The position numbers and the translations under genes were made by a program. The notes beneath the pieces are model-generated. The model made no database searches. It saw only the letters and a list, made by a program, of their open reading frames with translations, and was not told where the DNA came from. Below, in pieces: positions 2,004-15,757 of a DNA stretch of 64,000 nucleotides; the stretch's first letter is position 1; every line of letters starts with the position of its first letter. The stretch is from Kiritimatiellia bacterium (GTDB taxonomy: Bacteria > Verrucomicrobiota > Kiritimatiellia > RFP12 > JBMNHG01). Where the stretch lies: assembly GCA_050950285.1 (NCBI GenBank), contig JBMNHG010000002.1:886654-950653 (forward strand), written 5' to 3'.

Positions 2004-3488
2004 ATGGAAGCGCTTATACTGACGGGCTGGGGCTGGAAGGAATACCCCGTGGCGGCCGCCGTTGTTCTCAAGGGCATGGGCGGCATTGCCGAGGTCATGG
2101 GTATGAGCCGGCGTAGGCTCCCCGAGTTTCTCGAATCATACGGGGGCAGGGCGAGGCGGATCGTGCTGGTTGGCATCAGCCTGAGCGGCGATGAGCCGCG
2201 CCTCGCGCAGGCGCTCAAGGCGCTCGGGAAGCGTGGCGTCGGGGTGACGTGGATCAGCGCCATTGATTTCACACCCGCACAGGCGGACACCATAGCACCG
2301 CATCTGGAAGCGTTCCTTTGCCTTGACGGATCGCTGCTCGAAGCCGCGGGGCGTTTCTGCGGCGTTGACGCGGCGGTGTACGCCCCCTATGCCGAAGAGG
2401 GCAAGCGAACCACACCGGATGTCCGCGCATGGCACGAGCTGGTTGATGCCGCCATGTACGCCTATCGCAACTACCAGGACGAGGAATCCTACCCGAAGGC
2501 CATCCGCTATCTCGCCGCGGGCGTCGCCGAGAAGGCATGGGATGACGACGCGAAGCGCGTGGTTGCGCACTACCGCCGCTACGGCGGACGCGAGCTGGTC
2601 GGGAAGAGCGCGGCGATGCGGACACTACAGGAACGGATCAACCGCATTGCCACATTCCCTGATGCGCGGGTGCTGATCCTCGGCGAGAGCGGAACCGGCA
2701 AGGAGACGGTCGCACTGCAGATCCACAACAAGTCCGCGCGGCAAAACGAGCCGTTCTATGCCTTCAACTGCGCCAGCGTGACGCCCGAACTGCTGGAGAG
2801 CCGGTTCTTCGGACACGAGCGCGGCGCGTTCACGGGAGCGGACAAGCGGAAAGCGGGGCTTTTCGAGCTGGCGAACGGCGGCACGCTGTTCCTGGACGAA
2901 ATCGGCGAGCTTCCGCTGGAGGCGCAGGGCCTTCTGCTGCGCGTCCTCGATGGCGGGCGTTTCCTGCGCATGGGCGGGAGCGAGGAGATCGCCGTCGATG
3001 TCCGGCTCGTCACGGCCACGAACCGCAATCTTCCGCAGCGTGTCCGCGAGGGCCGGTTCCGCGGGGATCTCTTCATGCGGCTCAACGTCGTCCAGATCCG
3101 CATTCCCCCGCTGCGCGAGCACAAGGACGACATCTGGGACATTGCCGACGGCTGGTGGCTCCAGCATCACAAGCGGCACCTTGCCGAGGAGCAGATTGCC
3201 GCGCTGATGGAATACGACTATCCCGGCAACGTGCGCGAGCTGCTGAACCTGCTCGAGCGCGCCACCGTTCTCGGCGAAACCGATTTCACCGCGCTCGTGA
3301 ACGAGCACAGGGAGATGAACGCCGGACTCGCGGACAACGCCTCCAGCGAACTCGCGTCCGCGCCCGACGAGCTCGATGCGGCGATCCGCCTCCACGTCCG
3401 GCGCGTGTTCGACAAGTTCGGCCAGAACACCTCCAAGACCGCCGCCGCGCTCAAGGTGTCGCGGAACACGGTGAGGAAGTATCTATAA
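2004..3488 (+). CDS. Sigma-54-dependent transcriptional activator (NtrC/PspF-type AAA+, Fis-type HTH) with an atypical N-terminal domain
   Basis: Walker A GESGTGKE, GAFTGA loop, TLFLDEIG, FRGDLFMRL, YPGNVREL and C-terminal HTH (NTSKTAAALKVSRNTV). Confidence 0.95.
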   Translation: MEALILTGWGWKEYPVAAAVVLKGMGGIAEVMGMSRRRLPEFLESYGGRARRIVLVGISLSGDEPRLAQALKALGKRGVGVTWISAIDFTPAQADTIAPHLEAFLCLDGSLLEAAGRFCGVDAAVYAPYAEEGKRTTPDVRAWHELVDAAMYAYRNYQDEESYPKAIRYLAAGVAEKAWDDDAKRVVAHYRRYGGRELVGKSAAMRTLQERINRIATFPDARVLILGESGTGKETVALQIHNKSARQNEPFYAFNCASVTPELLESRFFGHERGAFTGADKRKAGLFELANGGTLFLDEIGELPLEAQGLLLRVLDGGRFLRMGGSEEIAVDVRLVTATNRNLPQRVREGRFRGDLFMRLNVVQIRIPPLREHKDDIWDIADGWWLQHHKRHLAEEQIAALMEYDYPGNVRELLNLLERATVLGETDFTALVNEHREMNAGLADNASSELASAPDELDAAIRLHVRRVFDKFGQNTSKTAAALKVSRNTVRKYL

Positions 3489-3495
3489 GGAAGCA

Positions 3496-3510
3496 TGGCA
3501 CGAATAATGC
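3496..3510 (+). promoter_or_regulatory. Sigma-54 (-24/-12) promoter
   Basis: TGGCACG-AATA-ATGC with exact GG-N10-GC spacing, just after the activator stop codon and about 50 bp before the next gene. Confidence 0.75.
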
Positions 3511-3561
3511 CCTTAATGAAAGGATGAATCCGCCGTCAACGCTTCTGGAAAGGAATGAGTG

Positions 3562-3918
3562 ATGAGTGCGCTTTGCAAGTACTGTGGACAGAAATACAAT
3601 GACGCGAGAACGCTGCTGGGCAACTCGTGCAGCCGACATCCGGATGGGCGTGGCAGGCACGCCCTGTTCGAGGGCGACACGGAAGGCCCGTTCTACTGCG
3701 TCCACTGCGGACAGAAGTACGGCGATCTGCGGTCGCTTGTCTCGAACTCGTGCACCAGGAACCCGGACGGCCGCTACCACGAGCCGTACGACGGGGATGT
3801 CGCGGGCGATTTCACGTGCAAGTACTGCGGCCGCACCTATCGCGACATCAGGAACATGGTCGCGAACTTCTGCCCCAAGAACCCGGTTCGCGGCGGGCGC
3901 CACTCCCCGGCGCGGTGA
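3562..3918 (+). CDS. Small protein of three tandem CxxC-x13-C-x~9-H putative zinc-binding repeats
   Basis: Repeats CKYCGQKY..C..HP..H, CVHCGQKY..C..NP..H and CKYCGRTY..C..NP..H. Alternative GTG start at 3559. Confidence 0.8.
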   Translation: MSALCKYCGQKYNDARTLLGNSCSRHPDGRGRHALFEGDTEGPFYCVHCGQKYGDLRSLVSNSCTRNPDGRYHEPYDGDVAGDFTCKYCGRTYRDIRNMVANFCPKNPVRGGRHSPAR

Positions 3919-3924
3919 GTTGTA

Positions 3925-5391
3925 ATGTCAACCGAGTGCCTGCTAAAGAGGGTGAAGAGCATGGAAAGTGATCGTCCAATCAAGAGTTTCTTTGTCAATC
4001 TCGCGTCTCGGTTGAGCGATGAGAACGACTTGTCGGATTTCGTGTGGGCATTGTGCCAGGCAAACGAGGGATTCAAGCAGTTCGTTCTCGATTTCTTCTT
4101 TCGGGATGAGCAGGGCGGGAAACTGAAGGCATCCGAATATCGCGTTGACCGCGAGGTGTCGCTGGCCGGCGGCAGGCCTGATTTTGTGATCACGGGAACG
4201 GATGATAAGAAGAACCGGTATTTTATCGAGATCAAGAAATGGGATCGTAATCATCACTTCAAGCAATACTTGAAGGAATTGGAAAAGGACGGCCATGATA
4301 TCCGACGGCTCGGCTATATTACGCAGTATGTGCTTGATCCGTCCAGTCTTGCAAACGGGGACAGGAACGTTGCACGGAATGGAGACAAGTGGGCTTGCCC
4401 GGTTAAAACATGGGGCCAGTTTCAGGAGGAATTGAAGCGTTGCATGGATAGTCCGGAGTCGTATCCCTGGGCGGCAGGAAGCGATGTGGCGGGGCTCTAT
4501 TGGTTTGCCCGGGCCACATGCCCCAATTATGACGCCGTAACGGAATTTACGCTTGATATCAACCGCATCAAACGTATTCAGGCATTTGCCAAGGCCTTGG
4601 ATTGGGTCGTAAAGCAGGAAGTCAATGTCGCTGTCAGCGGGCTGGACAAGAGTGTTCAGTTGAAAGGTTATTACGGCAAGCGTGATTATGAGCATTCGCT
4701 TCGTTACATCGGACGCTATTTTAAAGCTTCAGGGCTATATGAGGACCCAGTCTGGGGCTGGCTTGGCGTGTATTTCAGCAAAGATGATATCAGCGAAGAC
4801 GATGCAACGTCGGGGCTGACTCTTGAGTTTGAGAATGCTCAATGGTGGGGGGCGCCGGTTTTCGACCATCTTAAGTCGAAGAAGTCCGTACTTGATTATT
4901 GCGAACCTCTTGAACTGGATGACACCATAGAGGTGATGCAGGAGCGGATTCGTGCGTCCTTGTCAAGGATGCTTGCGAAGTGCCGGAAATCGGAACCGGT
5001 CAATAAGGCAAAGTGGGAGTCGCCTGACGAATTTATGGACGCAAGGCGAATCATGCTGTTCCTTGATCAGAATGTGCTGGTGAACAAGGATGATCTACCT
5101 ATTGTGTTCAGCTCCGGCTCTGTGCCTGGCGATGAATTTTCCTCGTCGGGCTGGATTGGAAGATATAGTTATGTGTCCTTGGAAGGTGGCGCTCCGCAAT
5201 TGATTTGGGTTGGGGTTCGATACGATGGCGTGAAGTTGACTGATCGTTCGACTCAAAGAAAGGTTACCGCAGACGGCAGCCAAGTGTTTTTGGATATTGA
5301 CGGCAAACAATATGTTCTATACAAATCGACGGAGTGGAATGCAGAGGAAATTAGGAGACGTATCCACGAAGAGCTATCAAGCCGCGCTTGA
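3925..5391 (+). CDS. PD-(D/E)XK nuclease superfamily protein with long C-terminal extension
   Basis: ENDLSD...REV...GRPDFVI...FIEIK...KQY pattern; visibly lower GC than its neighbours. Alternative start at 3961. Confidence 0.75.
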   Translation: MSTECLLKRVKSMESDRPIKSFFVNLASRLSDENDLSDFVWALCQANEGFKQFVLDFFFRDEQGGKLKASEYRVDREVSLAGGRPDFVITGTDDKKNRYFIEIKKWDRNHHFKQYLKELEKDGHDIRRLGYITQYVLDPSSLANGDRNVARNGDKWACPVKTWGQFQEELKRCMDSPESYPWAAGSDVAGLYWFARATCPNYDAVTEFTLDINRIKRIQAFAKALDWVVKQEVNVAVSGLDKSVQLKGYYGKRDYEHSLRYIGRYFKASGLYEDPVWGWLGVYFSKDDISEDDATSGLTLEFENAQWWGAPVFDHLKSKKSVLDYCEPLELDDTIEVMQERIRASLSRMLAKCRKSEPVNKAKWESPDEFMDARRIMLFLDQNVLVNKDDLPIVFSSGSVPGDEFSSSGWIGRYSYVSLEGGAPQLIWVGVRYDGVKLTDRSTQRKVTADGSQVFLDIDGKQYVLYKSTEWNAEEIRRRIHEELSSRA

Positions 5392-5639
5392 ACCGCCTAA
5401 ATCCCTTGAAACCGAACAGCACGGGAAATGCAATTGAACCCGCTGCCCAACGGAAACTCCTGCAAAACGCCTCGACCGTGATGGGTGATGGTCGGAATTT
5501 GAGCAGGTGGTAGACTTCTGAACAGCAAGCGCTGGAAAATGCCGGATCGGGTGAAGGTGTAAGTGCGAAGCACCCACTTAAACCACCCGCTTAAACCCAC
5601 TCGTAAACGGCACACTTAAACCACCCGCTTACTCCAATT

Positions 5640-5726
5640 TTCGCGCTTTTCGCGTATTTCGCGGTTCCCCTTTCCCGCAGCACCATCTAAAGCATTCGCG
5701 TGCATTGGCGTCCATTCGCGGTTCCC
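5640..5726. repeat. Two short arrays of 9-10 bp TTCGCG-type repeats, each ending in TTCGCGGTTCCC
   Basis: ttcgcgctt-ttcgcgtat-ttcgcggttccc and cattcgcgtg-cattggcgtc-cattcgcggttccc. Confidence 0.65.
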
Positions 5727-5733
5727 ATACCCG

Positions 5734-5749
5734 TGGCACGCCTTCTGCT
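5734..5749 (+). promoter_or_regulatory. Second sigma-54 (-24/-12) promoter
   Basis: TGGCACG-CCTT-CTGCT, near consensus TGGCACG-N4-TTGCW, with exact GG-N10-GC spacing. Confidence 0.75.
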
Positions 5750-5761
5750 AAATACTGGTGT

Positions 5762-5959
5762 ATGAACAGTGAATGGGCGGAGCCCCTCGGGCTCGACAAT
5801 CCGAAGCACCAGCTCGCGGCGGTTCCCGTGGCGAATGCCGGGGCGGTCATGGAGCCGTGCGCGGGACGCAAGGCGGACCTCCGCGACGGGATGCGGATGA
5901 GGATGCGAACCGCGATCGCGTTCGGTTCCGATGGCGGCACTGGCGGGGAGGAGCTGTAG
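5762..5959 (+). CDS. Possible 65-aa leader ORF or hypothetical protein
   Basis: ATG lies at about the predicted sigma-54 start site; its stop is 1 nt before the ATG at 5961. No recognisable motif. Confidence 0.3.
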   Translation: MNSEWAEPLGLDNPKHQLAAVPVANAGAVMEPCAGRKADLRDGMRMRMRTAIAFGSDGGTGGEEL

Positions 5960-5960
5960 G

Positions 5961-7838
5961 ATGGCGGCAGCGCAAGACGAACTGCGCGAGATGGTCCTCG
6001 CCGGAGCCAGGTCACGCTGGGGCTGGCTGACCGAGGACATCCGGACGCGGCTGGACTATGAGCTCGGAACTGTGGCGGAGTGCGGACAGGTGGACTACAT
6101 CCTCATGGCCGCACGGCTTGCAGCCGCCATCCGGGCGGGCGGCGGACGCATCAGCCCCGGACGCGGCGCTTGCGCAGCCTCGGCGGTGCTCTATGCGCTC
6201 GGCATCACCAATGTCGATCCTACGAAGTACGATCTCCCTTTTGAGCACTTCATGTTGCCCGAGCGCGAAAGGCAGCGGCCTGTGCTTATCGACACGGACG
6301 CCAGGGGGAACGTGGCGGCACGCGCATTCCTCACCGATGCGTATGGTGGTTACGAGGAACTGCCGCTTGACAAAGGCGCACCGCAGTTTCTCAGCGTGAA
6401 CGGATGGGAAATCTGTGTCACGCTCAATCCAGGCGTGAACCGTCTCTCGGACATGTTAGAACTCATCCGCGAGACCACGGGGGAGGTCGTTGACACCGAT
6501 CGTCTTCCCCTGGACGACAGAGCAACACTCGAGGCTTTCCGGCGTGGCGAGCTTGTCGGGATTCCACGTTACGATCATCCGGCCATCCAGAAGTCCCTCT
6601 CCTCGCTTCCGGACATGACGTTCGGCGAGCTGGTGAATCTCGGCACCCTTTCCTTTTCGTGGCTTTGCGAGCAGCGCGACGCCTACATCGCCCGCCGCCT
6701 CGGCCGGGCCAAGGCGCCTGTCGTGCATCCGCTGCTGGACGGCATCCTCGATGAGACGTGTGGCCTGGTCGTTTATGTCGAGCAGATACTGCTCATCCTG
6801 CGCCGGCTCGCCGGTTTCACGCGGGGCGAGGCCTACCAGTGCCAGCGTGCCATCGGGAAGCGGAAGCGCGAGACAATGGAGCAGTTCGCGCAGAAGTTCG
6901 TTTCCGGGTGCATGAACAATCCGGCTTTCCGCATTGGCGAATGTGCCGACGAGGAACAGGCGACCGGCGTTGCCGAGGCCCTCTGGAACGACATCGAGCA
7001 GAATGGGTGGCGCGCATTCATTAAGGGCCATGTCGTGGCTGCCGCCCGCCTGGCGTATGAACTGGGGTATCTGCAATGCCATTATCGTTCCGAGTGGATC
7101 TATCTCGACGGAAAGGAAGTGCGTCCTGAACCACGGCGCTCGGTCGCAAGTGAGATGGTGGAGCTCTATCACATCTCCAACGCTCTCGATAGCGGATGCC
7201 GCGTGACGCTCCTCATGCGCCATGCCGAGCGTCCGCCTCTCGGGCCGGGGGACACGACGTCCGGCGAACGGTTGCCGCTTACGATGGACGGCATCGGGCA
7301 GGCGCGGGACTTCGGCGCGTTCCTGTCGGGCCGGGTTTCTCCCGCGGGGGTTCGGATATTCGCTGGGAACACGCTACGCGCGATCCAGACCGCCGAGGTG
7401 ATCAGGGACGCCCTTGAGGACGGTTCCGGGACGAGGGCGCGCGACATCGGGCTTGTTCCGGAACTCGGCAGTGATTCGCCGTTCTTCGGGGAGCGCGACG
7501 AGCGGATGGCGCTGATTGCCGGGGGACGGTACCTGGAGCGGCTGAACGACTACTTTGGCACGGGGATCCAGCAGGGCTACCGTCCGCTGGCGGCCGCAAC
7601 GGATGCGATGGAGCGCGCCCTGGAGAGGCTGGAGGGGCGGCACAAGGAGGTCGTGGTCGCCATCACCCACGACATCAACGTGGCGGCATTCCTCGCCGGA
7701 CGCGGCGTTGTCGCCGCCTTCGACGAGGAGACGTGGCCGCACTACGGCGATGCGGCGGTGATCATCCGCAAAGACGAGGGCGAAATCGAATACGGCTACT
7801 ACCGCCGTGATTACACACCGGACGACGAAGTTGATTAG
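5961..7838 (+). CDS. Degenerate DNA polymerase III alpha (DnaE) palm/finger fragment fused to a histidine phosphatase domain
   Basis: DnaE-like: RLDYEL..., PGRGACAASAVLYALGITNVDP.KYDLPFEHF, LPLDD, ILDETCGLVVYVEQI...LAGFT.GEA...RAIGKRK, FIKGH. Phosphatase: LLMRHAER, RAIQTA, ITHD. GAGGAG RBS upstream. Confidence 0.8.
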   Translation: MAAAQDELREMVLAGARSRWGWLTEDIRTRLDYELGTVAECGQVDYILMAARLAAAIRAGGGRISPGRGACAASAVLYALGITNVDPTKYDLPFEHFMLPERERQRPVLIDTDARGNVAARAFLTDAYGGYEELPLDKGAPQFLSVNGWEICVTLNPGVNRLSDMLELIRETTGEVVDTDRLPLDDRATLEAFRRGELVGIPRYDHPAIQKSLSSLPDMTFGELVNLGTLSFSWLCEQRDAYIARRLGRAKAPVVHPLLDGILDETCGLVVYVEQILLILRRLAGFTRGEAYQCQRAIGKRKRETMEQFAQKFVSGCMNNPAFRIGECADEEQATGVAEALWNDIEQNGWRAFIKGHVVAAARLAYELGYLQCHYRSEWIYLDGKEVRPEPRRSVASEMVELYHISNALDSGCRVTLLMRHAERPPLGPGDTTSGERLPLTMDGIGQARDFGAFLSGRVSPAGVRIFAGNTLRAIQTAEVIRDALEDGSGTRARDIGLVPELGSDSPFFGERDERMALIAGGRYLERLNDYFGTGIQQGYRPLAAATDAMERALERLEGRHKEVVVAITHDINVAAFLAGRGVVAAFDEETWPHYGDAAVIIRKDEGEIEYGYYRRDYTPDDEVD

Positions 7839-7839
7839 T

Positions 7840-8559
7840 ATGGAGACAACGATGGACTGTTGCTGGAACATGATCCGTTCAAACCTTGTGGAAGCATGGG
7901 GTGAGCTTAATGATCTCCGCCGACGTCTCCGTTATTGCGAGACGGGAGAGCTTCCCGACCCCCCGGAATACGGGGCGTGGCTTGAGAGGCAATGGCGGAA
8001 AACGACAGAGCACAGCCTCCTCTTTGGCAAAATGGAACACGCCTATCATCATCTCAACTTCGGCTGGAACTGTCGCAGGTTTCCCGAAAAGCGGGTCATT
8101 GCGTGTGCAAGACGGGATTATGTGGAATGGCAGATATTCCCGAGGGACTGGCCTGAACTCTGGCCGTCCGCGGGCAGATACACAGGGATGCCGGGAAAGG
8201 TGGGGGACGGCAAGGTGTGCTACCCCACAATGCGCATACCGCTGGACGAGGTCTCCATGACGCTCGACGACGTGATCAACGATATGGACGCCACATTCCC
8301 CGAGTGCGCCGAGGCGCGTACCGGTCCTGGGAAGATCCGTAGAGGGCGTCCGCCAATGGACGAGGAAGGACTCGGTGTCCAGATGCGGCATATCTATATT
8401 TACATGAACTATGCGTGGAATTCTAGGCATTCCCGAAAGCTGACCTTGCCCGGAAAGGACGCTGAATCGGCGGCGACCATGAAGCGAAATTGGCAGTTCC
8501 CACGTGAGTTCAAGGATTTCTGGCCGAAGAAACAGGATTACGAACCCGGCCACAAATAG
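7840..8559 (+). CDS. Hypothetical protein made of two homologous helical domains
   Basis: MEHAYHHLNFGWNCR...FPRDWPELWP matches MRHIYIYMNYAWNSR...FPREFKDFWP. Starts 1 nt after the previous stop; the last residues and stop come from a MITE. Confidence 0.65.
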   Translation: METTMDCCWNMIRSNLVEAWGELNDLRRRLRYCETGELPDPPEYGAWLERQWRKTTEHSLLFGKMEHAYHHLNFGWNCRRFPEKRVIACARRDYVEWQIFPRDWPELWPSAGRYTGMPGKVGDGKVCYPTMRIPLDEVSMTLDDVINDMDATFPECAEARTGPGKIRRGRPPMDEEGLGVQMRHIYIYMNYAWNSRHSRKLTLPGKDAESAATMKRNWQFPREFKDFWPKKQDYEPGHK

Positions 8560-8690
8560 CGCTGCGCACGGAGATTCAGGCATTGGGAGCTGGAATTTAG
8601 AGTTGGGAAAGGGGCACGGACATTCCTGTCCGTGTCACGGGTTGGAAAACCCGTGCCCCTGTTTTGCAGCATGAATCGTGGCCGAGTTAG
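8541..8690. mobile_element. 150-bp MITE-like element, copy 1 (TA-flanked, terminal inverted repeats, internal REP-like double hairpin)
   Basis: TA|CGAACCCGGCCAC...GTGGCCGAGTTAG|TA; near-identical to 45460-45609. Confidence 0.8.
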
Positions 8691-8715
8691 TAACAGGAAT
8701 AAGACAGAGGAGACA

Positions 8716-9327
8716 ATGAACAACATGCACAGAACAACAATGCGTATTCGCCCCATTTTAATGGTGTCCATGGCGCTTGCCGCGGTGGCAGTGGGGTGCA
8801 ACTCGGGCAGGCAGGAAGAACCGGAAGCCCGCTATTCAGATGAATTGAGTTCGTACATCGAATTTTGCCGCTCGATGGCGCTGGAGTCCGATGAAAAGGA
8901 TGTTTCGCCCATGTGGGAGCAGCAGTCAGGTGGAGCATTCCAGGAGTTTACAAAGACGTTCAAGATTATCTACGGCGATGCGGACTACCTGAGCTTCTAC
9001 GCAACGGAGGCATCCTATACGGGCGGAGCGCATGGCCTGACTGAGATTACCGTCGGCACGATTTGCCGGAAGACCGGCAAGCTGCTGACGCTTGATGATG
9101 TTTTCCCCGTTGCGGAACGTGCGGCGTTGACGCGACAGCTTCATCAACTCGTTGCCGAGGCGATCGGCGAGGAGAACATCCTCTATGACGTCCAGCCCCG
9201 TGAGAATTTCTATCGGGCTGCGGACGGCTGGCATTTCGTCTACAATCCCTACGAGATCGCCGCCTACGCCCAGGGCGTGATCGATGTGGTGGTGAAGCGG
9301 GAGACACCGGGAGCCGCAGGAAAGTGA
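8716..9327 (+). CDS. Lipoprotein of the RsiV/PdaC-like DUF3298/DUF4163 family
   Basis: Lipobox AVAVG-C, YTGGAHG and FVYNPYEIAAYAQG motifs; GAGGAG RBS. Confidence 0.8.
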   Translation: MNNMHRTTMRIRPILMVSMALAAVAVGCNSGRQEEPEARYSDELSSYIEFCRSMALESDEKDVSPMWEQQSGGAFQEFTKTFKIIYGDADYLSFYATEASYTGGAHGLTEITVGTICRKTGKLLTLDDVFPVAERAALTRQLHQLVAEAIGEENILYDVQPRENFYRAADGWHFVYNPYEIAAYAQGVIDVVVKRETPGAAGK

Positions 9328-9847
9328 AAGGCCGCACGAGACAGTCTCAGCCACGGCACTACGATTCCGGGCAAGGTGCTGGCACAGCCCCTTGCCCCTG
9401 CGGGGCACCCGTTCGGCAGCATCGCGGCTGGCGTGACCGGCAAGCTGCGGGGTATTATCCGTGCCTCGTGCATCGGTTGCGGACATCCATTGCCGACGAA
9501 GACATGCGAGAATGCTGCATACGGGGCATTTTGCCAAGAGTCTCGCAATACGTTGCGCTGCAACAATCTGCAATAATCTACAGACAAAATCTTTTGGGGT
9601 GGACAAACGCCCCTGAAAGTACGACAACCCCTTGTCGCCAACCGACATGGTCGTGGCTTATCTGAAAGAGAAAGGCGTTGAGATTGACAGAGCGGCGTTC
9701 GACAAGAAGGTCGAGGACGTGCGCAGGGGCACTGACAAGGGCAAGAAGGTTAAATAGGTGCGGCAGCACCCGATGGCGCACATAAGCGGTTCGGGCTAGG
9801 CTGCCGAACCGGCTGGGCGCCAGCGGTTCCAGAGGGTTTGTTGGAGG

Positions 9848-11742: not shown

Positions 11743-11970
11743 GTCGTTCTCCTCTTCGATTTCTTGCGCAGAAACGTCGCCCGCATCATAGCACCTTTTG
11801 CCAACCGGATACATTGCGTCGTTTCCCGCTCGTCGTGCGGCGGTTCCCCCTGGGGCCGGCAGGGTCCGACAATTCGTATTTGACACGGTGTGGTTTTCGC
11901 GCAATCTTCGCATGCATGCGACAGCTCCGCTTGAAATCGGGCGGCCTGCGCGTTGCAACGATCATCCCTC

Positions 11971-13662
11971 ATGAGGAAGAAGCTTTCCACCATCCTTTCC
12001 AAGCGGCCTGCCCTTGGCTCGGTTGTCGCATGTGCCGCGGGATGTGCCATGGCCCAAGCGTCCGTGTCCCCTTGCCTGGTCCTGGCGGGCCTGGTCCTTT
12101 TCATCGCCATGGTCTGGATCGGGATGCGACGGAACCGATCCGATCGAAGGCTTGGCCTGCATCTCTCGTGGATGGCCGGGGTGTTCCTGGCCTATTTCCT
12201 GTGGGGACACCTTTTCTCGATCCGGCGGAACGTGGCGATGGAGGGCCTCTTCCCGCAGGATGGGCCGCACGCCACACGGATCGAGCTGACAGGCGTCGTG
12301 GGTTCCGACATCGAGTTCCAGCCGCTGAAAAACGGCGGGCTTCGGTGTTCCTTCCTGCTGTCCGAGATCCGGCCGGCGGACGGACTTGCCGAGAACGAGG
12401 CGGCCCCCATCCGCAACCTCGCGCGTCGTGGCGCCCCTTCCCTTCGCGTGGTCTGGTTCGGCCATCGACCCGGCAAGACGGAGGTGCGCCCCATCCCGCA
12501 AGCGGGGGATCGCTGGCAATTCCGCGGGAAAATCAACCTTGTGGGCAAGATCCCTGCGCGCCAGACCATCAAACTCACCTCCCGAAGAGAGGATTCGCGC
12601 CTCTTGGCACGGGCGGCCCACGGGAATTGGCGGTCGGTGGTCGCGGCGATGCGGGCGGAGAGCTCGCGACGCCTCTCCCTGGGGATGGAGGGGCGGAAAT
12701 GGCGCGATGCCTCCGCGATGATCCAGGCCATCCTGCTTGGCTATCGCCACGACATCCCGTATCGCTTGAACCAGGTCTTCCGTGATTCCGGAACGATGCA
12801 CGTCTTCGCGATTTCCGGGATGCACGTGATGATCGTGGCCGGTTTCCTGACAACCCTGCTGGGATGGATCGGCCTTCCGCGCACCCGCTGGTTCCTCGTG
12901 GTGTGCCCTGCGCTTGTGGTCTACACCGCGATCACGGGGGCGCAACCCAGCGCCTTGCGGGCGTGCCTGATGACCTGCCTGTATTTGATCGCGCCCTTGT
13001 TCGGACGTCGCCCCGACGGCGCCAGCGCCCTGTCCATCGCCGCGCTGGTGCTGCTTGCCTGGAATCCCGGCCAAATCTCCAACGCCGGCTTCCTGCTGTC
13101 CTTCACGGTCGTCGCGGGCCTGATTGCCCTGGCCACGCCCCTGACACGCCTCTTCCGTCGCCTCCCCTTCGCCGAACGGCTCGCCGAAAACGACCGCCTT
13201 CTCTGGAGGCAAGGGGGAGACGTCCCCGCTTTCGCGCGCTGGCGGGCAAGACTGCTCCACGGCAGCTACGACTACGTCGCCAATTTGCTCGCGGTCTCCA
13301 TCGTGGCGTGGGTTACGTCCGCACCGCTTACAGCCTGGTACTTCCAGCGCCTCACGCCCGTGGCCATCCTCGCGAACCTCGCGATCGTCCCCCTTGCCAT
13401 GGTGGTGGTGGTGGGAGGGTGCTCGAGCCTGGTTGCCGCGAGCATCGCGACCCCGCTCGCCATGGTTGTCAACCGGATTCCGGCCTTGGCGGCGGAACTC
13501 ATGGCGCAAGTGGCCCACGCGTCGTCGTCCATCTCCTGGCTCGTGTGCAAAGTGCCCAAACCGCCCGAATGGATGGTGGGAGCATGGTATTTCCTCCTTG
13601 TCCTGGCGGCATGGCACATCCGGACGCGCAACCCTGCCGACGAACGTTCGCTTCCCTATTGA
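11971..13662 (+). CDS. comEC: ComEC/Rec2 competence membrane protein (no C-terminal metallo-beta-lactamase domain)
   Basis: HVFAISGMHV, GAQPSALRA, GFLLSF and ANLAIVP motifs; multiple TM helices. Confidence 0.9.
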   Translation: MRKKLSTILSKRPALGSVVACAAGCAMAQASVSPCLVLAGLVLFIAMVWIGMRRNRSDRRLGLHLSWMAGVFLAYFLWGHLFSIRRNVAMEGLFPQDGPHATRIELTGVVGSDIEFQPLKNGGLRCSFLLSEIRPADGLAENEAAPIRNLARRGAPSLRVVWFGHRPGKTEVRPIPQAGDRWQFRGKINLVGKIPARQTIKLTSRREDSRLLARAAHGNWRSVVAAMRAESSRRLSLGMEGRKWRDASAMIQAILLGYRHDIPYRLNQVFRDSGTMHVFAISGMHVMIVAGFLTTLLGWIGLPRTRWFLVVCPALVVYTAITGAQPSALRACLMTCLYLIAPLFGRRPDGASALSIAALVLLAWNPGQISNAGFLLSFTVVAGLIALATPLTRLFRRLPFAERLAENDRLLWRQGGDVPAFARWRARLLHGSYDYVANLLAVSIVAWVTSAPLTAWYFQRLTPVAILANLAIVPLAMVVVVGGCSSLVAASIATPLAMVVNRIPALAAELMAQVAHASSSISWLVCKVPKPPEWMVGAWYFLLVLAAWHIRTRNPADERSLPY

Positions 13663-13743
13663 CGCTTGTCCACGTATACTCGTCTCATGCCCATCGCGAT
13701 GGGCACGATACCCCACATCGCAACGACGAAAGAAGGATTCCAC

Positions 13744-15726
13744 ATGAAACAAGGCTGGCGCTGGTACGGGACAAGCGACCCCATCTCCCTCAAAGAAATC
13801 CGCCAGGCGGGCGTGACGGACATCGTCGCGGCCCTCTACGAGCGCAAATGCGGCGAGGTGTGGCCGGTGAAGGAAATCCAGGCCCGCCAGCTGGATGTCG
13901 CGAAGGCCGGCATGGCGTGGACGGTTGTCGAGTCCCTGCCCGTCCATGAATCGATCAAGACCCGGACGGGCGATTTCCGGAAGTACATCGCCAACTACAA
14001 GAAATCCCTCCAAAACCTCGCGGCGTGCGGCATCAAGGTTGTGTGCTACAACTTCATGCCCGTGCTCGACTGGACGCGCTCGAACCTCGCGAAAGAGCTT
14101 CCCGACGGCTCGACGGTCCTCCAATACGACGACGTCGAAGTCGCGGCCTTCGACCTCTTCATGCTGCGCCGCCCAGGCGCCGCGAAAGACTACGGGAAAG
14201 AGGTCCGCGAAAAGGCGAAGGCCCTCTTCGGGACGATGTCCGAAACCCGCCGCAAGCAGGTGGCCGAATCGATTTTGCTGGGGCTCCCGGGAACCGTGGA
14301 CAACCTCACGATTCCGCAGTTCCGCGATTTGCTCGAGACCTACAAGGGGATTGACGACCGCGCCCTCCGCGAAAACCTGTATGCGTTCCTGGACGAAATC
14401 CGCCCGCTTTGCGACAAGCTCGGCATCCGCATGGCCATCCATCCCGACGATCCGCCGCGGCCGATTTTCGGCCTGCCCCGCGTGATGTCCACCGCCGCCG
14501 ACTTCCGCGAACTGTGCGAACGCATCCCTTCCGACGCCATCGGGTTCACCTTCTGCACCGGCTCCCTCGGCGGCAACCCGGAGTCGGACGAGGTCGCGAT
14601 GTTCGCGGAATTCGCCCCTCGCATCCACTTCATCCACTTCCGCAACGTCGTCTATGCCGAGGGACGGACCTTCCGCGAGAGCGAATGCCACCTTTCCGGC
14701 AAGGTGGACATGGCGCGCCTGATGCGGTTGCTCGTGAAAGAGGAAACCCGCCGCGGGGAAGCCATCGTGGTCCGCCCCGACCATGGCCGCTCCATGGAGA
14801 TCGACAAGGGGCGCGACTGCTATAGCGGGTACGCCTACGGAGGCCGTCTCGTGGGGCTCGCGGAATTGCGCGGGCTGGAACACGGCATCCGCCACGGAAG
14901 CGACATCGACGGGAAGGTCGTGGTGTGTACCGGCGCTGCCGGCGTGCTTTGTTCGGCGCTGGCCGAAGACCTGCTCGTACACGGCGCGAAGGTGGCGGCG
15001 CTCGACCTTCGCGGGGACGTCGCGAAAGCGTTCTGCGAATCGCTCGCCGCAAAGGGTCTCGCCGAAACCCTCCCCATCGAAGCGGACGTGCTGGACAAGC
15101 CGACCCTCGAGGCCGCCCGCGACGCCGTGCTCGCGAAGTGGGGGCGCATCGACATCCTGGTCAACGGCGCCGGAGGGAACCATCCGCGCGGCACGACGCC
15201 GGCGGAACAGATGACCCCCGGCACCCCCTGGGACGACACCTTCTTCGGCCTCGACATGGCGGGCTTCGAGTTCGTGAACAAGCTGAACTTCATCGGGACG
15301 CTCCTGCCCTGCCAGGTCTTCTGCAAGACGATGTGCGACCAGGGTGGCGGCAGCGTGCTGAACTTCTGTTCGATGGCCGCCTACCAGCCCCTCACGAAGG
15401 TGGCGGCCTACGGAGCCGCAAAGGCTTCCGTCATGAACTTCACCGCGTGGCTCGCGACGCACCTGGCGCCGATGGGCATCCGCGTGAACGCGCTTGCCCC
15501 CGGCTTCTTCATCACCGACCAGAACCGCTTCCTGATGCTGGAGAAAGACGGCAAAACCCCCACCGCGCGAGGCAACAAGGTCATCGCGAAGACCCCCATG
15601 CGGAAGTTCGGGCAGCCAAGCGACCTCTTCGGCGCCGCGCGCTATCTCCTCTCCGAAGACGCCAGCTTCGTCACCGGCGTGGTCCTCCCCGTCGACGGAG
15701 GCTTCGTCTGCTACTCCGGCGTGTGA
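13744..15726 (+). CDS. uxuA: Fused mannonate dehydratase (UxuA) and SDR-family D-mannonate oxidoreductase (UxuB-like)
   Basis: UxuA motifs WRWYG, CYNFMPVLDWTR, IHPDDPP and RPDHG continue in frame into SDR motifs TGAAGVLC, NGAGGN, YGAAK and VDGGF. Confidence 0.9.
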   Translation: MKQGWRWYGTSDPISLKEIRQAGVTDIVAALYERKCGEVWPVKEIQARQLDVAKAGMAWTVVESLPVHESIKTRTGDFRKYIANYKKSLQNLAACGIKVVCYNFMPVLDWTRSNLAKELPDGSTVLQYDDVEVAAFDLFMLRRPGAAKDYGKEVREKAKALFGTMSETRRKQVAESILLGLPGTVDNLTIPQFRDLLETYKGIDDRALRENLYAFLDEIRPLCDKLGIRMAIHPDDPPRPIFGLPRVMSTAADFRELCERIPSDAIGFTFCTGSLGGNPESDEVAMFAEFAPRIHFIHFRNVVYAEGRTFRESECHLSGKVDMARLMRLLVKEETRRGEAIVVRPDHGRSMEIDKGRDCYSGYAYGGRLVGLAELRGLEHGIRHGSDIDGKVVVCTGAAGVLCSALAEDLLVHGAKVAALDLRGDVAKAFCESLAAKGLAETLPIEADVLDKPTLEAARDAVLAKWGRIDILVNGAGGNHPRGTTPAEQMTPGTPWDDTFFGLDMAGFEFVNKLNFIGTLLPCQVFCKTMCDQGGGSVLNFCSMAAYQPLTKVAAYGAAKASVMNFTAWLATHLAPMGIRVNALAPGFFITDQNRFLMLEKDGKTPTARGNKVIAKTPMRKFGQPSDLFGAARYLLSEDASFVTGVVLPVDGGFVCYSGV

Positions 15727-15757
15727 GGACAGCGGCATGCCGCTTTTGCGGGGTGCG

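Follow-up and report, generated by a model that had tools for sequence, protein, structure and literature searches.

What could a bacterium gain from a protein that joins a replicative polymerase core, apparently stripped of its catalytic residues, to a seemingly intact phosphatase? The question is raised by a gene at positions 5961–7838 of a 64,000-nucleotide stretch of the genome of a Kiritimatiellia bacterium (assembly GCA_050950285.1, contig JBMNHG010000002.1). This whole stretch is called the window, and all positions refer to it unless another locus is named. The gene encodes a fusion of a core related to DnaE, the α subunit of DNA polymerase III, with a histidine phosphatase. We propose, as a reading of the sequence that we hold to be on balance probable, that the fusion is an inducible cargo gene whose dead polymerase core would guide the phosphatase to DNA ends or nucleotides. 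The most likely role of the fusion is in a response to conflict or damage that is inducible and directed at DNA.

The fusion occupies a single stop-free frame on the forward strand (5931–7838, 635 codons). ATG 5961 is its likely start, since a GGGGAGGAG run lies 7 nt upstream and the homologues all begin at the counterpart of its M-A-A-A-Q. Residue and column numbers follow the window fusion protein, P0001. Three Pfam families match it, as follows. DNA_pol3_alpha covers residues 17–130 (E 3e-20) with only positions 2–116 of the 260 in its profile, DNA_pol3_finger covers 172–330 (E 1.5e-29), and His_Phos_1 covers 427–587 with 27.4 bits against a gathering score of 21.7. No match to PHP (PF02811), HHH_6 (PF14579) or OB (PF01336) was found in Pfam, whereas full-length relatives in the same search have them. 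The NCBIfam equivalogs for polymerase III α fall far under their cut-offs, the best example reaching 183 bits against 1260. A profile search of PDB aligns the fusion with Mycobacterium tuberculosis DnaE1 in two stretches, 312–438 and 590–804. The residues between them, 439–589 of 5lew, are skipped; they form the thumb of DnaE1, about 150 residues for which the fusion has about 30. The original prediction, made from the sequence alone, is borne out in that a DnaE-like N-terminal part lacks the PHP and C-terminal regions and has a reduced thumb. It spoke of the loss of much of the thumb, but the whole thumb is gone.

The 625-residue fusion was modelled with AlphaFold2 from an 80-row alignment, with a mean predicted local distance difference test score (pLDDT) of 94.6 and a predicted template modelling score of 0.88. 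Model residues 1–388 match DnaE1 (5lew, 311–818) with Z 43.7, a root-mean-square deviation (rmsd) of 2.1 Å and 29% identity over 374 residues, which are spread across a 508-residue span of 5lew. The same residues match E. coli α (2hnh, 283–793) with Z 38.1. Model residues ~410–621 match histidine phosphatases, namely RosC (9emu_C, Z 16.2), the phosphatase domain of M. smegmatis MutT1 (5gg8, Z 14.5, rmsd 2.7 over 153 residues) and PhoE (1h2e, Z 14.4). Judged from the model, the N-terminal module has the palm and fingers fold of DnaE. Four defining features of a functional DnaE are absent from the gene, which lies outside that group and is a member of branch 1 of the histidine phosphatases.

The DnaE palm has three catalytic carboxylates, D401, D403 and D555 in the E. 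coli enzyme. The polymerase columns were read in an 80-row alignment (A3) with 47 true DnaE rows and 17 fusion-family rows. In this register, V-L-I-D-T-D of the fusion lies over F-D-V-D-F-D of the separate full-length DnaE that the same genome encodes on another contig. The first catalytic aspartate is replaced by L119 and the third by C162, which stands at the aspartate of the K-M-D-F-L-G-L motif of true DnaE; the second is kept as D121. Column 119, aspartate in 46 of the 47 DnaE rows, is L in ten family rows, M in three, C in three and G in one, and column 162, aspartate in 46/47, is G in twelve, C in three, A in one and a gap in one. Neither column is acidic in any of the 17 family rows. 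Column 121, aspartate in all 47 DnaE rows, is D in 13 family rows and E in four. The lysine of column 160 (44/47 in DnaE) is absent from all 17 family rows, where the column is not conserved and five rows have E160. The serine of column 80 (44/47) is mostly alanine in the family (12 rows), and GRGS of DnaE reads GRGA in the window fusion, as had been noticed. The loss of the catalytic motif claimed earlier holds, then, for the first and third aspartates, missing 17/17, and does not hold for D/E121, one of the three carboxylates. Because two of the three are lost, polymerisation by the standard two-metal mechanism is not expected.

In contrast, GRG is kept in 16–17 of the 17 family rows, and D123, a position that is non-catalytic in DnaE, in 16. 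The finger motifs ET.G..YQEQ, R-K/R-A..K and K.H are kept in 15–17 rows: G278 and Q285 in 17; T276, Y282, E284, K/R306, K/R310 and H367 in 16; and K/R365 in 15. GRG and the finger motifs are shared with DnaE and polymerase III α. Unlike these enzymes, the fusion is without PHP, thumb, β-binding, OB and τ-binding regions, and two catalytic aspartates, the lysine and the serine are lost. By these alignments, metal ligands are lost while the residues that line the nucleotide and primer-terminus pocket of DnaE stay. In the mechanism that we propose, the N-terminal module would derive from the palm and proximal fingers of DnaE, with polymerisation lost and the pocket residues retained. The dead core would bind a DNA terminus or a (deoxy)nucleotide and present it to the phosphatase, which would then take off its phosphate.

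A HMMER alignment of the fusion to the Thermus enzyme sets D-T-D on D-T-D and allows a register with an intact site, in which D121 and D123 form the metal pair and E160 is the third carboxylate. This candidate was rejected on the 80-row register and on the presence of E160 in only 5/17 rows. A related proposal is that the module is an active, unconventional nucleotidyltransferase, in which D/E121, D123 and a recruited residue bind metal and add nucleotides, for example as a signal or as a tail on a 3′ end cleaned by the phosphatase. We consider this improbable. D/E121 is acidic in 17/17 rows, D123, GRG and the finger motifs are kept, and E160 is invariant in the closest subfamily, all of which would suit such an enzyme. 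However, the first and third carboxylates and the column-160 lysine are missing in every row, the thumb that holds the primer–template duplex is gone, and in four fusions that are reduced still further GRG and the acidic pair are gone, with the phosphatase kept.

The dead core could also be a decoy or guard, the alternative put forward in the original prediction, one that mimics the host replicase such that a phage inhibitor of DnaE binds it and switches the phosphatase on. The fold is indeed very near that of true DnaE (Z 38–44, rmsd 2.1–2.6 and 25–29% identity over ~375 residues of 5lew, 2hnh and 4iqj), the catalytic residues are gone, and the neighbourhood in relatives is defence-like. Yet the surfaces for replisome partners are all missing (PHP, the β-binding region and the τ-binding C-terminus), the identity to the DnaE of the same genome is only 37–39%, and conservation falls on the nucleotide pocket and not on the outer surfaces. 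Such a role is very improbable in our estimation.

Thumbless, PHP-less mini-DnaEs of 415–710 amino acids, nearer to true DnaE, were also found (P0047, P0061, P0109 and P0155) and may, from their sequences, represent active C-family polymerases in minimal form. In P0061, a membrane region with a FtsW/RodA-like match stands at the N-terminus. Among five thumbless mini-DnaEs, these four and P0058, column 119 is acidic in three and column 162 in four. These acidic residues suggest that the dead fusion form arose by steps, by way of an active form without a thumb.

The phosphatase module appears catalytically intact by its RH...R...H set and its fold. RHAE, R..QTA and THD, the motifs for which the original prediction called it intact-looking, are all present in the window fusion. 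Among the 21 phosphatase-bearing rows, R430-H431, R434 and T579-H580-D581 are kept in all and R483 in 20. Of the two halves, the phosphatase is the better conserved in all 15 pairwise comparisons of six full-length fusions; it is always ~230 amino acids long and has the clade signature RHAERPP, THDxN and WP..DAAV. It is also the constant part across several fusion arrangements, in which every fused partner acts on nucleic acids or nucleotides. The same phosphatase is joined to a further-reduced polymerase remnant, with GRG and the acidic pair gone, in P0051, P0069, P0103 and P0180; it is fused to a DUF6946 nuclease-fold domain in P0053; and it also stands alone. DUF6946 belongs to the PD-(D/E)XK clan in Pfam, and PMC10584680 describes it as a putative restriction endonuclease resembling EndoMS. 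A 475-residue protein at two further loci (L037:10002–11426 and L038:9568–10992, both on the reverse strand) has an HD domain and a phosphatase of the same clade.

Is the fusion, then, a chance event, a decaying pseudogene or an assembly artefact? Among the 37 matches in a collection of 5.8 billion proteins are full-length fusions of 93, 70, 53 and 52% identity. Cluster representatives add fusions of 47 and 43%, and metagenome loci (L006, L007) fusions of 41%. Genome loci hold a fusion of 802 amino acids (L035) and one of 629 (L076), the halves of which are 35 and 51% identical to those of the window. The scan of genome contigs gave one true relative, L001, the other match (L002) being an ordinary DnaE-like one. 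The fusion recurs at 35–93% identity in at least four lineages, and the homologues are unnamed in every source that holds them. Against two 95%-identical metagenome copies (L003, L004), the ratio of nonsynonymous to synonymous substitution rates (dN/dS) is 0.36 and 0.39, with values of 0.33–0.35 in the polymerase and 0.49 in the phosphatase half; the fusion is under purifying selection. A 2,745-nt contig from an independent run equals 5696–8440 with 0 differences. All or part of the stretch is also present in sequencing runs of 16 studies on anaerobic digesters and bioreactors (20 rows, 11 of which have at least half of the sampled words).

Decay is nonetheless seen in places. Members of one related lineage have lost all or an internal part of the phosphatase half (L005, 386 amino acids; L008, 480; and L010), one allele (L004) reads RHAE-C where the others read RHAE-R, and the near-identical L003 and L004 have a dN/dS of ~1 on 12 differences. 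Set against the open frame, the conservation of both domains, the selection on copies at 5% divergence, the pLDDT of the model and the identical independent contig, these observations leave a chance or decaying fusion extremely improbable. The original prediction had allowed for a fusion unique to this assembly, for neutral decay, and for a stop or frameshift between the domains. None of the three was seen, and the frame is continuous across both domains in independent assemblies.

When would such a gene be expressed? A σ54 promoter lies ahead of it (Table 1). It is the sole exact match to TGGCAC-N5-YTGCW in the window, where 0.10 would be expected, and L001, L003 and L004 have the very same site. 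The fusion operons of L035 (7367), L006 (4472) and L076 (13059) have an equivalent site at their head. The genome encodes RpoN (Sigma54_DBD, 189.8 bits), and no σ70-like site was found ahead of the fusion gene in 5300–5960. The fusion and the tandem helical protein that follows it would be transcribed from this one promoter. The hairpin that may end this operon is suggestive only, the hairpin count in the region being no higher than in shuffles. A search of 3400–9800 against Rfam gave no credible RNA family (one match, E 0.67), and a tRNA search of 1–20 kb found none.

A dedicated σ54 activator encoded at 2004–3488 probably drives the fusion promoter, as judged from the sequence. It matches Sigma54_activat in Pfam (E 6.7e-65), ends ~2.5 kb upstream of the fusion and is the sole copy of its type in the genome. 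Over its full length it is 69% identical to an activator of L035 whose gene and the fusion gene overlap at the 3′ end of the latter. The N-terminal 204 residues were modelled with a pLDDT of 91.2 and compared with 48,161 PDB representatives. The top 10 matches are all of the DHH family (Z 10.1–14.4, 180–194 of the 204 residues aligned). The best is PAP phosphatase 8a8k (Z 14.4, 183 residues), and RecJ, RecJ-Cdc45 and Cdc45 follow at Z 10–12.7, whereas generic Rossmann-like matches reach Z 9.5 at most and cover residues 1–120. The catalytic motifs of the DHH family are DHH and DxD. The D-H-H triplet is not among the invariant columns of the activator alignment (A5), and we therefore take the modelled DHH-fold domain to be a degenerate, probably non-catalytic sensor. 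Because the sensor is DHH-like, expression probably answers a nucleic-acid-derived signal. In our proposal, this RecJ/NrnA/Cdc45-like sensor would be the part that responds to it. Of the 301 genomes of the order that were searched, 111 have activators of the DHH type, frequently with several copies each; no description of one was found in the literature.

Direct repeats with units of 19 and 12 nt lie 8–160 nt upstream of the σ54 site. In L001 they are kept, and a 130-nt insertion parts them from the promoter. These repeats may be candidate activator binding sites.

Table 1. Features of the fusion locus, in positions of the window.
Feature	Position	Strand	Remarks
σ54 enhancer-binding protein, 494 aa	2004..3488	+	DHH-fold sensor 1–~200, AAA+ 198–365, C-terminal helix-turn-helix
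Weaker σ54-like −24/−12 element, TGGCACGAATAATGC	3496..3510	+	One mismatch; ahead of the 119-aa reading frame and the 488-aa gene
119-aa open reading frame	3559..3918	+	No family match above cut-off; 97% conserved in close relatives (tblastn, L001 and L003)
488-aa gene	3925..5391	+	G+C content ~50% against 63%; PDDEXK_9, E 3.5e-4, under cut-off
Direct repeats, CACTTAAACCACCCGCTTA x2 and TTCGCGGTTCCC x2	5575..5726	+	Repeat search, families D1, D2, D6 and D8
σ54 promoter, TGGCACGCCTTCTGCT	5734..5749	+	−24 GG and −12 GC; 211 nt before ATG 5961
Pseudo-polymerase module (DnaE palm and proximal fingers), P0001 residues 11–398	5961..7124	+	Structure match; no PHP, thumb or β/τ/OB regions
Structured linker, helix-strand-helix	7125..7187	+	Model helix 376–385, strand 392–395, helix 402–410; pLDDT of the block 82–94
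Histidine phosphatase module, branch 1, residues ~420–631	7188..7838	+	Catalytic set intact; TAG stop 7836–7838
239-aa protein, two repeats of a small helical domain	7840..8559	+	ATG 1 nt after the fusion stop
Terminator-like hairpin, 8-pair stem (5 GC pairs), then CCCCTGTTTT	8636..8665	+	Would close the two-gene operon
DUF3298/PdaC-like lipoprotein	8713..9327		Just downstream of the operon; predicted exported
1,258-aa open reading frame	11962..15738	−	Without a Pfam family

The tandem helical protein carries the motif E-H-A-Y-H-H-L-N-x-x-W-N-x-R, with the conserved core H-H-x-N-x-x-W-N-x-R (alignment A4). Pfam, PHROG, PADLOC and NCBIfam have no family that matches it, and in the Atlas it falls in unnamed clusters only. 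Both of its halves match a 114-aa protein that stands beside the fusion elsewhere (E 1e-7 to 4e-9). In each of the four lineages with context (the window, L035, the L006 group and L076), the fusion has a single or tandem form no more than 6 kb away. A prediction of the complex between the fusion (A2) and the tandem protein (A4), run without controls, gave a score of 0.00 (mark 0.32), which we count neither for nor against an interaction. The small helical family occurs in 28 of the 301 genomes of the order, and 25 of these 28 have the DHH-type activator against 86 of the 273 without the small protein, a comparison in which kin are not independent.

The neighbours of the small helical protein were counted in 20 of the loci in the 27 other genomes. 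The DHH-type activator is beside it in seven loci, an IetA-like double AAA+ ATPase and a GmrSD-like nuclease in five each, and a FtsK-like translocase, a DEDDh exonuclease, a full-length 390-aa protein and a DUF3298 lipoprotein in four each. A homologue of the window 488-aa gene is there in two. Around the fusion itself, a DEDDh exonuclease gene overlaps the fusion gene start in L006/L007 and L076, and a Type I restriction-modification (R-M) system with an integrase lies downstream of the fusion in L007.

The window itself has a place where genes are exchanged. The segment 3927–5469, which holds the 488-aa gene, has no counterpart in the 95%-identical L001 and L003; these relatives hold a different gene of ~100 residues in the same slot, with its own TGGCAC-N5-TTGC, read by eye, ahead. 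Homologues of the 488-aa protein (30–33% identity) stand beside the same activator and small-protein pair in L070 and L072. The 488-aa gene is variable cargo. The element ahead of it is one of six one-mismatch σ54 matches in the window, where 3.6 are expected, and this count is weak alone.

Across the order, the regulator, the promoter type and the small protein are found with interchangeable cargo, namely GmrSD, PD-(D/E)XK nucleases, the DEDDh exonuclease, the FtsK-like translocase and the IetA-like ATPases. The fusion belongs to this exchangeable, DNA-acting cargo and shares its regulatory scheme. The earlier picture of a lone oddity changes because a σ54 promoter, a dedicated regulator, a co-transcribed protein and a variable-island context have been found: the fusion is one cargo gene of a regulated system.

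Some further features of these loci were seen. L006 (4524–11920) and L076 (6272–13059, reverse strand) have a σ54-headed operon in common, with the order IetA-like double AAA+ ATPase, ~180-aa protein, 114-aa helical protein, ~390-aa protein, DEDDh exonuclease and fusion. The ~390-aa protein has ankyrin-like C-terminal repeats, as read from its sequence. Homologues of the lipoprotein downstream of the window operon, 52–56% identical, are neighbours of the small helical protein at four further loci.

Several observations weigh against the proposal of an inducible cargo gene. The first concern the promoter and the operon. The whole 4.05-Mb genome has six exact matches to the σ54 consensus against 23 for the reversed control, and such sites are not enriched. 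The site was not found in L005, L008 or L009. The link between fusion and small helical protein is loose. Only one of the 20 counted loci has the fusion beside the small protein, and in L003, L004 and run X18, 531 nt of the tandem gene (7875–8405) are deleted with the fusion intact. Transcription of the fusion is only hinted at by a few contigs from RNA libraries. Two metatranscriptome libraries gave small variant-strain contigs over pieces of both halves, which may be DNA. The loss of the phosphatase half in one lineage, described above, counts on the same side. As to the dead core, the conserved D/E121 (17/17) and D123 (16/17) may, from their sequence conservation, leave room for some metal-dependent chemistry.

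The remaining difficulties concern defence, an interpretation that rests on the gene neighbours of the fusion. PADLOC-DB 2.0 gave 0 families for the fusion, the tandem protein and the 114-aa protein, and the PADLOC matches are found only among neighbours in relatives (the IetA-like ATPase and the DEDDh exonuclease). The phosphatase module is absent from the matches to phage records, plasmid records and IMG/VR contigs with the queries used. In one family, 16 of 17 genomes have standalone relatives of the phosphatase (33–36% identity), and in another family 5 of 6 do. The contexts of these relatives, for which only Pfam-checked genes were used, are housekeeping-like, with no neighbour conserved across the 13 compared. 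Both the near-universal presence in one family and such contexts are as compatible with an origin in metabolism or repair as with one in defence.

These absences and the near-universal standalone phosphatases make repair a serious rival. The fusion would in this case be a housekeeping end-cleaner. Its polymerase-derived module would bind DNA with gaps or nicks, and its phosphatase would clear away the 3′-phosphates with which lyases or strand breaks block ends. DNA damage would induce the fusion, which would have no phage or plasmid role. One standalone phosphatase gene lies directly after a MutY-like glycosylase gene (L047), the DEDDh exonuclease adjoining the fusion suits 3′-end processing, and ligand-sensing σ54 regulators such as RtcR run nucleic-acid repair operons elsewhere. 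Housekeeping is nevertheless hard to square with the distribution of the fusion, which is rare and patchy and travels with the restriction-type nucleases GmrSD and DUF6946, beside Type I R-M and an integrase. In addition, strains of 95% identity carry other cargo in the slot beside it, and the contexts of the standalone phosphatases are not conserved. We consider a repair end-cleaner unlikely, and retain the proposal that the fusion is an inducible cargo gene.

It is tempting to take this proposal further. The locus would then represent a new class of inducible conflict island, in which a DHH-sensor activator detects a breakdown product of nucleic acids and fires interchangeable, DNA-attacking cargo. 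The dead replicase core would recognise a primer terminus or a deoxynucleoside triphosphate and steer the phosphatase onto replicating foreign DNA or its precursors, and thus block extension or ligation. This extension is speculative, and we think it doubtful, if conceivable. If true, it would make the fusion the first repurposed C-family pseudo-polymerase.

How does the fusion compare with known proteins? Its phosphatase resembles PhoE, SixA, RosC and PGAM5 of branch 1 in fold (Z 13.5–16.2), in the RH...R...H set and in the His_Phos_1 match. Unlike them, it forms a distinct clade that is joined to DNA- or nucleotide-related domains. MutT1 of M. smegmatis also combines a nucleotide-binding module with a histidine phosphatase domain, and MutT1 entries with 8-oxo-dGDP or dGTP (ligands by PDB titles) are among the structural matches of the fusion phosphatase. 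In MutT1, however, the phosphatase is partnered by a Nudix hydrolase in place of a polymerase core, and the two domains are both reportedly active.

RtcR-RtcBA has a σ54 promoter and a dedicated activator with a nucleotide- or nucleic-acid-binding N-terminal fold, and controls end-processing enzymes. The fusion locus is like it in pairing a σ54 promoter with a dedicated activator. It differs in that the sensor has the DHH fold, the RtcR model covering the AAA+ part only, and in that the cargo is unrelated to RtcB and RtcA.

Dead enzymes are reused as binding modules among kinases, proteases and Y-family polymerases, and we know of no dead C-family polymerase. A search of the literature found neither a dead C-family polymerase nor a polymerase–phosphatase fusion of this architecture, in keeping with the earlier statement that no described protein has it. 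ImuB, a dead Y-family polymerase from the mutasome that ImuA, ImuB and DnaE2 form, is kept for binding or scaffolding according to the abstract of PMC6511836. The fusion would be like ImuB in having a polymerase fold with catalysis lost and a binding role, which for the fusion is our proposal. Unlike the fusion, ImuB is of the Y and not the C family, has no fused enzyme, and has another operon and regulation. By analogy, MutT1 and ImuB appear to be the closest working analogues of the fusion. The architecture may be undescribed, and the regulatory island that surrounds it may be the larger novelty.

The compact core is of use beyond this locus. At 388 residues, it is predicted to fold confidently without PHP, thumb or clamp-binding parts, and would serve as a probe of what the palm and fingers of DnaE bind. 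The partners of the phosphatase (dead polymerase, nuclease-fold and HD domains) suggest that this histidine phosphatase clade, which is common in the order, acts on nucleotides or DNA ends. The locus also exposes two undescribed things, a σ54 activator with a DHH sensor and a set of variable DNA-acting genes behind matching promoters. If this cargo is defensive, these bacteria would keep their defence genes silent and induce them through σ54.

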